From the NCBI GenBank assembly GCA_963724765.1, contig CAVRVY010000004.1:1536001-1600000 (forward strand): a stretch of 64,000 bases of DNA, given 5' to 3'. Shown here piece after piece: positions 42,430 to 45,062 of this stretch. Positions within the stretch are counted from its first letter, which is position 1. Each line of letters begins with the position of its first letter. This DNA comes from an uncultured delta proteobacterium. Lineage in GTDB: Bacteria > Desulfobacterota > Binatia > Binatales > Binataceae. The notes under the pieces were generated by a model. That model saw only the letters and a list, made by a program, of their open reading frames with translations, was not told where the DNA came from and made no database searches. The translations under genes and the position numbers were made by a program.

Positions 42430-43274
42430 CGACTGTACCCGTCGCTCCTGGACGCGATCACCATCGTCCAGCCGGAGACCGTGATCCGCTGGCACCGACG
42501 CGGTTTCCGCGCCTATTGGCGCTGGAAGTCCCGCCACGTCGGCGGCCGTCCAAGGATCGATTGCGAGATGCGAGCGCTGATCCGGCGGGGATGAGCCGCG
42601 AGAACCCGCTGTGGGGCGCACCGCGGATCCACGGCGAATTGTTGATGCTTGGAATCGAGGTCGCTGAATCAACCGTCGGCAGGTATATGGTCTGGCGCCG
42701 CCGACCACCGTCCCAAGGTTGGAAGACTTTCCTGCGCAATCACGTTGGCGGCATCGCTTCGCTGGATCTGTTCGTCGTACCCACGTCTCGTTCAAGCTGC
42801 TGTACGGCTTGGTGATCCTGCGTCACGCCCGCAGGCGACTAGTCGCGATCAGCGTCACTACCAATCCGACTGCCGAGTGGATCGCTGGACAGGTGACTGA
42901 CGCTTTCCCCTGGGACGAAGCGCCGCGTCACCTGATTCGCGACCGCGACGGGGGCCTTCGGCCCAGCCTACACCCATCGCATTCGGGCAATGGGGATCCG
43001 CGATCATCCGACCGCGCCGCGTTCACCGTGGCAGAACGGCCACGTCGAGCGCCTCATCGGCTCGATCCGGCGCGAAAGCCTCGATCACTTGGTCGTGTTC
43101 GACGAAGCGCAGTTGCGTCGCGTTCTGAAGAATTACGCTTCTTATTACAATCGGGTCCGAACGCATCTCTCATTGGACAAGAATGCGCCGGATTTTCGAC
43201 GCCCACAGAAGCTCGGCCCCATCGCAGCCATTTCAATTCTGGGTGGGCTGCACCACCAATATGTAAGGGTTTAG
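42430..43274 (+). pseudogene. 3' part of integrase-core transposase, frameshifted
   Basis: MSRENPLWGAPRIHGELL, LIRDRDG, SPWQNGHVERLIGSIRRE, GGLHHQY spread over several frames. Confidence 0.88.
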
Positions 43275-43369
43275 CAACCGTGTTGAGGGCGCGTTGCCCA
43301 CAGGGTCCACAGGCTCTGGGATCGAATAGAGCATCCCGCCTGTGGACTTGTGGGCAACGCGCAGGCTGT

Positions 43370-44329
43370 CTAATTTTTTTCGACTGCAGCCGCGCATGGT
43401 TGCCTCCAGGTAGTATTGCTCTTGAGCATGGCGTTGAGGATCACGATGATCCTGCGCATCACTGCCACCAGCGCAACTTTTTCAAGCTTGCCGCGCGCGC
43501 GCAGCCGTTCATAAAACTGCTTGAGCACCGGATTGCAGCGGATCGCACTCAGCGCGCACATGTAAAGCTTGCTGCGTACCGGATAGCGTCCGCCCCGGAT
43601 GACCCGGCGGTCGCGCCGGCCGCCGCTGTCATCGGGGAACGGGGCGATTCCGACCAGGGCCGCGGCGGCTTTGCCGCTGAGCGTGCCCAGTTCCGGCAGC
43701 TTGGCCAGCACCGTGGTGCAGAACACCTTGCCCACCCCCGGAAAACTGCGCAGCACCTCGCTCTTGCGCCGCCAGGCCTCCGAGCGCCGCACGGTCTTAT
43801 CGATATCATCGTCGATCTGTGTGATGCGGCCCTCCAGGTAAGCGATATGCTGGCGCAACTCTTTACGGACCTGCGCGCTGGCGCGCTGCAGCCGCTGTTG
43901 CTCCGCTACGCGCATCTCGAGCAATTGGTCGCGCCGGGTGGCCAATTCCTGCAACGCCTGCGTCTCCGCATCCAGCGGCGGCCGCAGCGCGGGTTGCTCG
44001 CGTTGGGCGAACAGCGCGAGCAGCCTGGCCTCGATGCGGTCGGTCTTCGCCAATAGTCCGCTGCCCCGCGTATAGCTCCGCACCCAGCTCGGATTGACAG
44101 CCGCCACTGTGACCTCTGCGGTCCATAGCGCCGCCACCACCTGCCGTTGCAATCCGCCGGTCGCTTCCACCACCACCAGCTTGGGCTGCAGTTTGCCCAG
44201 TCGACCCACCAACTGCTTCAGCCCGGCCCGATCGTAAGCCAGCGTGAAGCCCTCGCCGCTGGGGCGCACCGCCACCACCAGCTCGGTCTTGCTCACATCG
44301 ATCCCAACATAGACATCCTCCTCCATCAC
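43370..44329 (-). CDS. IS110 recombinase/transposase
   Basis: [32 protein letters not shown] (catalytic Ser), ALVAVMRR. Confidence 0.95.
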
Positions 44330-44334
44330 CCTGC

Positions 44335-44505
44335 TCCTTACTCCGCGTCCTACCCGTCCTTGTACATGCGGGCTTCTGCCTTGCGCGCGGCCCTGTCAAC
44401 TGTTCGAGCTGCGGACGCTTGAATTAGCGGACGCGACGATCCTGGCTAAACCACGGTCTCTTGCCGACCCAGGTTTTTACGGTCTGCCGCGCCCGCTGCT
44501 ATCTT
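44335..44505 (-). ncRNA. putative bridge RNA of the IS110 (boundaries approximate)
   Basis: Four guide segments matching target and donor appear in the expected order (see finding). Confidence 0.75.
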
Positions 44506-45062
44506 CATACGCCGATTCTCAGATACAAGGTTTTGACTAAGCACACCACCTAAGCCGTCCGCAGCTGTCGTCGATCGATCGTTTGCTCTGGGTACGTGGG
44601 AACTGTGTTCTTCGAAGAACCGGATTCGTTTGTCGTGAGCCTTCCTTTAGGTATAGGTTTTTTCAAGGCCGGAAAGTTATTGCACGTGCCACACAACCGT
44701 GTCCGACTCGGACGGCCATAAACCCAACGGAGTTCATTCATGGACGCCTATCTGGATCGTATCTCTCCTGAGAAATTAACGGTCCTCTGCACAAGGGGGT
44801 TTTTCCTCGACGATAGAAGGCTGACATTTATCGACGAATACGGGGCGGAGCTTTCTATCGAAGAGGTCGAGGAAAACAACGTACGCTGGCTGAAGCGCCG
44901 GATCGGTGAGGTCGGACACTGATAGGCTGCTGCCGGAGTCTTTTCAGGAACGCACAAGCGTTAAGGCGGCGTGCGGAAAGTCCGCGCGTGGCAAGTCGAA
45001 CACTCGTCCACATCTACATCGCGAACCTGAAGGGAACACGAAATTAGTAACTGTTTCGGCGA

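Follow-up and report, generated by a model that had tools for sequence, protein, structure and literature searches.

The window analysed here is a stretch of 64,000 nucleotides from the genome of an uncultured delta proteobacterium of the family Binataceae (assembly GCA_963724765.1, contig CAVRVY010000004.1; G000:C4:1536001-1600000 in the coordinates used below). At positions 43273..44529 of the window, on the minus strand, lies an insertion sequence (IS) of the IS110 family, 1,257 bp long when one copy of its CT core is counted, with both junctions readable and the empty site found elsewhere. The element carries a recombinase gene (43370..44329, minus strand) between two non-coding ends, the left one of 199 nt, from the core to the start codon, and the right one of about 95 nt, and it sits in the right end of another IS with an integrase-core transposase, referred to below as the host IS. 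The left non-coding end is the main subject of this analysis, as the candidate source of a bridge RNA of the kind described for IS621.

The recombinase gene encodes a DEDD/Ser protein of 319 aa with D11, E55, D97, E100 (Asp in the relatives) and S235, an assignment that draws on Pfam, NCBIfam, solved structures and an alignment of relatives. Both Pfam domains score above their cut-offs (PF01548, 77.1 bits, E = 1.7e-21; PF02371, 62.6 bits, E = 4.6e-17), the NCBIfam model NF033542, ‘IS110 family RNA-guided transposase', is matched with 213.9 bits against a cut-off of 140, and the closest solved structures are those of ISCro4 (9t56, E = 1.9e-32) and IS621 (8wt6, E = 1.3e-31). By these sequence comparisons, the product is an IS110-family recombinase. 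At residue 240 (43610-43612, minus strand), within the SG..RG motif and five residues past the catalytic Ser, the window protein has Asp, compared with Gly in all 26 relatives aligned there; ISCro4 has Ala, so that this position does vary across the wider family.

On the minus strand, the left junction reads TCAAAAC (44536-44530), CT (44529-44528) and TGTAT (44527-44523), and the right junction reads ACGGTTG (43281-43275), CT (43274-43273) and AAACC (43272-43268), with the two cores 1,255 bp apart; the interval 43268-44536 thus holds the element together with 7 nt of left and 5 nt of right target flank. The left copy of the core (44528..44529) precedes TGTAT in all 30 aligned elements, and TGTAT itself (44523..44527), the first bases of the element and its right donor (RD), is invariant among these relatives. 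The last bases of the element, ACGGTTG (43275..43281), make up the left donor (LD), which reads ACAGTTG in close relatives, and the right copy of the core is followed by the right target (RT) AAACC (43268..43274 together, minus strand). The target rebuilt by joining the flanks, TCAAAAC-CT-AAACC, and the donor junction obtained by joining the ends, ACGGTTG-CT-TGTAT, agree exactly with the minus-strand reading of the initial annotation. The boundary call is independently confirmed by the genome itself because the rebuilt 14-mer TCAAAACCTAAACC occurs uninterrupted at 7 sites, as does the 12-mer AAAACCTAAACC.

The sequence following the target is the same at all seven uninterrupted sites and, read as its reverse complement, is the end of an integrase-core gene; these sites represent the right ends of an IS of about 1.1 kb. 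The terminal inverted repeats of this host IS are TGTGCTTAGTCAAAACCTAAACCC on the right and TGTGCCTCCCGAAAACCTTATCC on the left, and the 12-bp target AAAAC-CT-AAACC corresponds to the inner half of the former. On the plus strand, the core reads AG and supplies the last two bases of the TAG stop codon of the host IS (open reading frame (ORF) 42990-43274, ending in ...HHQYVRV*), which bears out the earlier proposal that the insertion lies at the junction of stop codon and terminal repeat of an integrase-core IS. A search of the genome for further copies, with the 1,269 bases of 43268-44536 as the query and the 7 flank bases first, found one full and three truncated IS110 elements, and the left ends of all four agree in the base and the orientation at which they enter one IS family, which answers a check proposed in the initial annotation. 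In front of each of the four left ends stands the outermost 16-nt tip of the right terminal repeat, TGTGCTTAGTCAAAAC (44530..44545 in the window, minus strand), the last 7 nt of which (44530-44536) are the left target (LT), and beyond this tip the sequences are unlike at all four copies. Altogether, 12 ends with GCTTAGTCAAAAC are present in the genome, 4 of them occupied by an IS110 left end, each insertion splitting the outer 16 bp from the rest of the repeat, and 8 not occupied, among which 7 retain the perfect target and 1 differs at the last right-target base. At the left repeat of the host IS, left target and core are unchanged but TATCC takes the place of the right target, and this repeat is unused in the window genome. 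DNA contigs from two metagenomes show the element, a truncated copy and uninterrupted host IS ends matching other copies in the window genome; no joint indicating a circle or an excision was seen in the metagenome DNA or metatranscriptome contigs.

The body of the host IS in the window (42428..43274, plus strand) is cut at the 5' end and frameshifted, as judged by BLAST against an intact copy, and leaves two ORF fragments (42516-42815 and 42990-43274). The intact copy (L046) encodes a protein of 344 aa with the rve_3 and HTH_32 domains of Pfam, which scores 95.3 bits with the NCBIfam model for IS481 (cut-off 224) and 85.9 bits with that for IS3 (cut-off 160); because neither cut-off is passed, the host is referred to as an rve_3 integrase-core IS, with IS481 and IS3 as its nearest families. 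No target-site duplications were seen around the host IS copies by eye, a search that was not systematic.

Several arrangements around these elements are worth recording in their own right. The host IS body in the window begins abruptly at 42428, at about its position 237, in surroundings that form a nest of broken insertion sequences, and just upstream lies an ORF that appears IstB-like by eye (40725-41621, plus strand). At G000:C3:216707-218176, two truncated IS110 copies that are 91% identical (L002 and L003) face each other, each beginning with a left end; they cover bases 1-925 and 1-563 of the query, overlap by 18 bp at 217611-217628, and are each preceded by the 16-nt host IS tip, with no host IS body. 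This pair could be the product of an inversion or a deletion between two inverted copies or else an assembly artefact. The locus G000:C3:44740-45452 (L004) links 431 bp from the left of the host IS, by way of about 13 bases common to both parts, with the initial 277 query bases (7 from the flank and about 270 from the element itself; 100% identity with the window copy) and the host tip. This locus retains both ends of the host IS and is the remnant to be expected from an internal deletion in a composite in which the IS110 element resides within the host IS. Finally, G000:C1:570791-572297 holds a near-palindromic host IS copy with two right ends and inverted arms of 411 bp that are 99.8% identical, each arm bearing an unoccupied IS110 target.

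Close relatives of the element are found in Binataceae-type metagenome-assembled genomes in a scan of GTDB species genomes, and loci at 45-94% protein identity were obtained from 401 genomes of the class to which the window genome belongs; no conclusion drawn here depends on the two unpublished genomes among them. The left ends of 30 elements were aligned. Duplicates (L006, L008 and L009, equal to L017, L022 and L018, respectively), fragments lacking the left end (L015, L042 and L044) and four loci at 37-38% identity with a different upstream RNA and no CTTGTAT end (L011-L014) were left out, and counts that involve the right target or the left donor refer to 27 or 28 elements because L010 and L017 lack the right end. 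All 30 left ends begin with CT-TGTAT, and the right ends read A(C/T)(A/G)GT(C/T)G-CT.

RNAalifold applied to these 30 left ends, which span 45-100% protein identity, yields two stem-loops. The first, predicted to bind the target (44428..44495, minus strand), consists of an outer stem of 12 bp with a bulged A, a large internal loop and an upper stem of 4 bp; the second, predicted to bind the donor (44345..44418, with the consensus part at 44352-44409, minus strand), consists of an outer stem of 4 bp, an internal loop and an upper stem of 4 bp, and is lengthened in the window clade by the additional helix GCGUCC/GGACGC (44345-44418). A conserved CG stands right before each of the two left guides described below. 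The helices are maintained by compensatory change: in the two helices of stem-loop 1 (helices 1 and 2), 96.7% and 97.5% of the alignment cells are paired, with changes on both sides in 11 of the 16 pairs, and in those of stem-loop 2 (helices 3 and 5), 100% and 98.3%, with two-sided changes in 6 of the 8 pairs. Overall, standard pairs occupy 97.8% of 778 cells, compared with 85.9% in shuffled alignments and 33.5-43.7% when the partners are slid by 1-3 columns, and two-sided changes occur in 17 of 26 pairs, compared with 9.1 in the shuffles and 3-9 after sliding; not one of 500 shuffles attains any of the five structure measures.

Four guide strings can be read in the left end of the window copy, at the coordinates and with the match counts that had been given for them from the letters alone. 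The left target guide (LTG), TAAAAACCT (44471..44479, minus strand), matches the left target and core at 8 of 9 positions, and its effective part, AAAACCT (44471-44477), at 7 of 7; the right target guide (RTG), GGTTTAG (44446..44452, minus strand), matches the reverse complement of CT-AAACC at 7 of 7. The left donor guide (LDG), ACAGTTG (44397..44403, minus strand), matches the left donor ACGGTTG at 6 of 7 positions, and the right donor guide (RDG), (G)TACAAG (44359..44365, minus strand), which includes an invariant CAAG, matches the reverse complement of CT-TGTA at 6 of 6 over TACAAG (44359-44364). LTG and RTG lie on the 5' and the 3' side, respectively, of internal loop 1, and LDG and RDG on the two sides of internal loop 2, so that the loops backed by covariation hold all the guides; had the guides fallen outside the internal loops of two stem-loops, the proposal of a bridge RNA would have been contradicted. 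The order LTG-RTG-LDG-RDG, the strand sense and the CT core, which had been likened to IS621, match the published descriptions of that element as far as these go (PMC11208160, PMC11208158). When the left end (193 nt) was shuffled 20,000 times, AAAACCT was recovered in 0.63% of the shuffles, GGTTTAG in 0.47%, ACGGTTG with at most one mismatch in 22% and TACAAG in 3.9%. All four strings jointly were recovered in none, and the product of the single rates is 2.5e-7, with no order required.

The guides change together with the sites. For each element, the aligned loop columns were compared with its own flanks and with the flanks of the other elements. Over the 7 non-core positions of the left target, the mean match is 4.45 of 7 to the own flank (29 combinations) compared with 2.47 to other flanks, and over the 5 non-core positions of the right target, 4.74 of 5 (27 elements) compared with 1.66. 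None of 20,000 permutations attains the observed sums for either the left or the right target, and the same holds when each distinct RTG (15 in all) is represented once. The signal is confined to definite positions. Left-target positions 3-6 follow the own guide in 69-76% of the elements, compared with 27-30% for other flanks, and the five right-target positions after the core in 89-100% compared with 30-44%; by contrast, left-target positions 1 and 2 do not follow the guide (17% and 34% versus 19% and 24%, respectively), nor does the sixth right-target position (19% versus 19%). Left-target position 7 gives no covariation signal (100% versus 93%) because it is C in nearly all elements. Given that the covarying positions end there on the left and on the right, the site programmed in this clade is taken to be NNNNN-CT-NNNNN, and the window copy fits this programme at 12 of 12 positions. 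The description of the LTG as a guide of 9 nt therefore has to be amended: the match of 8 out of 9 stands, but the effective guide comprises 5 nt and CT, and the single mismatch, at position 2, lies outside the guide, in the part that does not covary.

The strict column-wise comparison under-counts the LTG matches of L033, L035 and L041 owing to alignment shifts of 1 nt, and an offset-free comparison was therefore employed, with left-target positions 3-7 and CT searched in loop 1. In this comparison, 24 of the 30 elements match at 6 or more of 7 positions and 12 match perfectly, compared with 8.1% and 1.5%, respectively, of 860 non-cognate pairs. On the donor side, LD position 3 (A or G) follows the LDG in 26 of 27 elements and position 6 (T or C) in all 27, and covariation between RD and RDG is beyond testing because the RD is invariant. 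The base after the RDG (G44358 in the window copy), a handshake position, is complementary to left-target position 7 throughout the 30 elements, being G in the 29 elements with C at that position and A in L031, which has T. The C after the RTG (C44445 in the window copy), the other handshake position, and the G at donor position 7 are present in 30 of 30 elements, and are uninformative because both are invariant. The second handshake base shows no fit in the window copy, and the base after the LDG is A in the window clade, not the core C.

The sites of the relatives differ in kind. L007, L022 and L018, close relatives from other genomes, occupy IS ends of the same kind in differing surroundings. 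Relatives with five copies each in G288, G249 and G167 have sites that fit their own guides, with some departures of the G:T type and a few mismatches. As a separate observation, L021, L027, L043, L045 and the copies in G288 and G167 (L048-L051 and L056-L059), at 45-72% identity, are inserted in an intergenic repeat that reads GAATC.TGAATCGCGCGC...GCGCGCTG.ACAAGGACC-CT-CACCTT...CTCTCCC....GGGAGAG, a palindromic sequence of these genomes resembling the repetitive extragenic palindromic (REP) elements. The relative that is 90% identical to the window copy (L018, equal to L009) occupies the site TGTGCCTTCTCAAAAC-CT-AATCC, which resembles the left and not the right terminal repeat of the host IS family and fits its guide at 4 of the 5 right-target bases; apparently, either IS end can be targeted when the sequence fits.

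Taken together, these observations make it very probable that the left end of the window element encodes an IS621-type bridge RNA of an IS110-group IS, aimed at the end of another IS. The element boundaries, the empty sites, the identity of the site at four of four copies, the RNA structure with its covariation and the co-change of guides and flanks were all observed directly; transcription of the RNA, its binding by the protein and the recombination chemistry would follow by analogy with IS621. According to the published accounts of that element, its RNA of 177 nt is encoded in the left end under a promoter that is rebuilt on excision, LTG and LDG pair with the bottom strand and RTG and RDG with the top strand, and the CT core takes part in the pairings (PMC11208160, PMC11208158). 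In the window element, loop 1 would thus present AAAACCU, in the same sense as the top strand of the target, and GGUUUAG, complementary to that strand, and loop 2, with ACAGUUG and UACAAG, would recognize the junction at which the element ends meet in the excised circle (ACAGTTG-CT-TGTAT). By the same analogy, a recombinase tetramer would hold the RNA while its two loops pair with target and circle junction, respectively, strand exchange would proceed at the CT core through a phosphoserine intermediate, and the insertion would create no duplication beyond the shared CT.

A number of observations weigh against this reading, some of them against the RNA and others against the function of this particular copy. 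The single-sequence minimum free energy fold is unremarkable (z = -1.83) and joins the two target guides to each other (LTG bases AAACC with RTG bases GGUUU), so that no open loops emerge from a single fold; because such a fold is not decisive, the consensus fold of the alignment was relied on. Rfam 15, scanned at E values up to 10, shows no family on the minus strand of the left end, although it may hold no bridge RNA model, and a match to sX15 is on the wrong strand and at the level of chance (E = 0.59). Six of the 30 elements fit their left flank poorly (L019, L024, L027, L039 and L043 with 5 of 7, L023 with 3 of 7). The promoter and terminator scan gave no site of either kind in the linear element, sigma-70-like promoters included, the circle junction of the window copy scores 2 of 6 for a -35 box, and the metatranscriptome contigs of two runs cover only parts of the recombinase gene of diverged relatives and leave the left end uncovered, so that they are uninformative on expression. 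Of the 28 elements scored, 13 have a junction -35 box (TTGAC(T/C), at least 5 of 6 positions, 17-18 nt ahead of the left-end TAT...), among them none of the seven elements with at least 69% protein identity, the window copy included. The lack of such a box bears on the expression of the window copy, not on the architecture of the RNA. Residue 100, the fourth DEDD position, is Glu in the window protein (codon 44030-44032), whereas the catalytic Asp is found there in 26 of 28 relatives and in both truncated copies in the same genome, and an Asp codon is present at 44030 in contigs of related variants from two metagenomes. Finally, the window copy has the sole mismatch between LD and LDG (A:C) among 27 elements.

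To judge from its sequence, with Glu100, the A:C mismatch between LDG and LD and no recognizable -35 box at the junction, the window copy may thus be weakened or crippled, and that it is an inactive relic is a serious possibility, given these features and the three truncated copies, with a chance of about one in three; the nature of the RNA is unaffected by such inactivity. The alternative that follows from this accepts the bridge RNA as real for the clade but takes the window copy for a dead relic and derives the four copies from the copying or rearrangement of one composite of the IS110 element within the host IS, moved, for example, by the host IS transposase or by recombination among the IS copies. 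We regard it as holding a substantial minority share of the probability. Besides the residue 100 substitution, the unique donor mismatch and the missing -35 box, it can draw on the truncation of three of the four copies, on the segment C3:45160-45436, which shares all of its 277 nt with the window copy (100% identity) and adjoins 431 bp from the left of the host IS, as expected of a deletion product of the composite, and on the window host IS body, itself truncated and frameshifted. It is opposed by the close relatives that occupy such IS ends in differing surroundings, which argues that the clade really selects the site, by the lack of target-site duplications that would prove movement of a composite (looked for by eye only), and by the chemistry of residue 100, where Glu retains the carboxylate, so that recombinase activity may persist. 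The unlike sequence beyond the 16-nt tip is predicted by both the RNA-guided and the composite routes and does not discriminate between them. The characterization as a natural programmable recombinase in the initial annotation accordingly holds for the clade, in which guides and flanks covary, and has to be qualified for the window copy, which is possibly impaired by the same three features.

The coincidence of guide strings and site, with a protein or a DNA structure at the IS end setting the site, would be a different explanation, to which the A-rich, partly repeated target (AAAAC..AAACC), with the resulting partial complementarity of LTG and RTG, and the lack of an observed transcript in metatranscriptome contigs that leave the left end uncovered lend some colour; it is nevertheless very hard to sustain against a joint chance of about 2.5e-7 for the four strings, the co-change of guides and flanks across 15 distinct guide sets that no permutation out of 20,000 attains, and loops that lie between helices kept by compensatory changes.

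The right end contains a hairpin as well, GCGTTGCCCACAAGTCCACAGGC...GCCTGTGGACCCTGTGGGCAACGC (43291..43361, minus strand; one occurrence in the genome), the arms of which, GTTGCCCACAAGTCCACAGGC and GCCTGTGGACCCTGTGGGCAAC, are near-identical in elements with recombinases only 45-56% identical to that of the window. The window-type hairpin is present in L007, L019-L021, L023, L027 and L045, and that of L025, L026, L031 and L043 is different. It looks like an exchangeable right-end module because L043 and L045, which share the bridge RNA guides and have similar proteins, bear unrelated hairpins. An Rfam scan of the hairpin gave only chance-level matches to miRNA-type models.

That the element belongs to the IS1111 group and that this strongly conserved hairpin downstream of the gene is the real guide RNA (a seekRNA) is scarcely credible, since the long non-coding end is upstream (199 nt, compared with about 95 nt downstream), the four guides and all the covariation are upstream as well, the hairpin is swapped for an unrelated one in L025, L026, L031 and L043 and absent in others with the target logic unchanged, and no subterminal inverted repeats of 11-13 bp were seen at the ends by eye, no repeat search having been run.

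With an IS621-type bridge RNA as the preferred reading, a broader scenario can be considered. Because the target is the terminal repeat of the host IS, the multicopy IS end serves as a landing pad, like the REP-like repeats for the sister clades, and because the sister clades use such repeats, the window clade appears to represent natural retargeting. In its full form, a lineage of bridge-RNA elements within one family of Binatia-like genomes would have been naturally reprogrammed from REP-like repeats to the inner half of an IS terminal inverted repeat and turned into an RNA-guided hyperparasite that disables copies of its host IS or rides on them as a composite, a possibility that we consider less likely than not. 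If true, it would provide a natural instance in which a programmable RNA is turned by one transposon against another.

The mechanism is already known, and the element is best regarded as a well-resolved natural example from an uncultured lineage of soil and sediment. The approximately 30 related elements, with 15 target-guide sets, a near-constant donor loop and an RTG of 7 nt (CT and 5 nt), form a natural reprogramming series. The targeting of an IS end extends to the IS110 group a theme associated with IS4321 and IS5075 of the IS1111 group, and prompts the question whether the host IS is silenced by such insertions or serves them as a vehicle. For genome annotation, the analysis accounts for the 16-nt orphan tip and for the truncated copies. 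In literature searches, none of which was aimed specifically at this question, no paper on an IS110-group element aimed at an IS end was found.

Among solved structures, ISCro4 (9t56) is the best match (E = 1.9e-32 over residues 3-307), with the GIDVSK, EAT, KTD..DA and SG motifs aligned; it differs from the window protein in having Asp at the position of Glu100. The elements IS4321 and IS5075 reportedly target the terminal inverted repeat of the Tn21 family, as Partridge and Hall are said to have described in 2003, and share with the window element the membership in the IS110 superfamily and a fixed target in the terminal inverted repeat of another transposable element. The window element differs from them in an RNA that lies upstream of the gene and in its host, a small IS instead of a Tn3-family transposon; in the IS1111 group, by the account in PMC11187229, the guide RNA is downstream of the gene and subterminal inverted repeats of 11-13 bp are present.

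Bridge RNAs of the IS110 group are established, with thousands of orthologues predicted, in the account of PMC11208160, and IS621 is the natural reference. The window element resembles it in the DEDD/Ser recombinase (E = 1.3e-31 to 8wt6 in the PDB; catalytic residues D11, E60, D102, D105 and S241 are given for IS621 in PMC11208158, the fourth acidic position being Glu100 in the window protein) and, as far as the published descriptions extend, in a guide RNA located in a long left end and folded in two stem-loops, in the guide order, strand sense and CT core, in one handshake position after each right guide, and in the -35 box of a junction promoter supplied by the right end in 13 of the 28 elements scored. 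The bulged A and the CG before the left guides may be analogous to the flipped A and the syn G described for IS621 (PMC11208158). The two differ in the effective LTG, 5 nt and CT here compared with 7 nt and CT, and in the RTG, CT and 5 nt here compared with the four bases of wild-type IS621; PMC11208160 gives nine bases for the IS621 LTG, describes longer RTGs in other orthologues and states that an engineered RTG of 7 nt improves efficiency. They also differ in the base after the LDG, A here compared with the core C, and in the target, the terminal repeat of another IS here, not a REP element; protein identity is low, and the RNAs were compared through published descriptions, not by alignment. 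ISPpu9 and ISPpu10, described as REP-targeting elements of the IS110 group (PMC11208160, PMC12288879), share with the window element the specificity for a multicopy repeat, and the sister clades of the latter are found in REP-like repeats; the window clade, with at least 90% protein identity, differs in that both target guides have changed and the repeat is the end of an IS.

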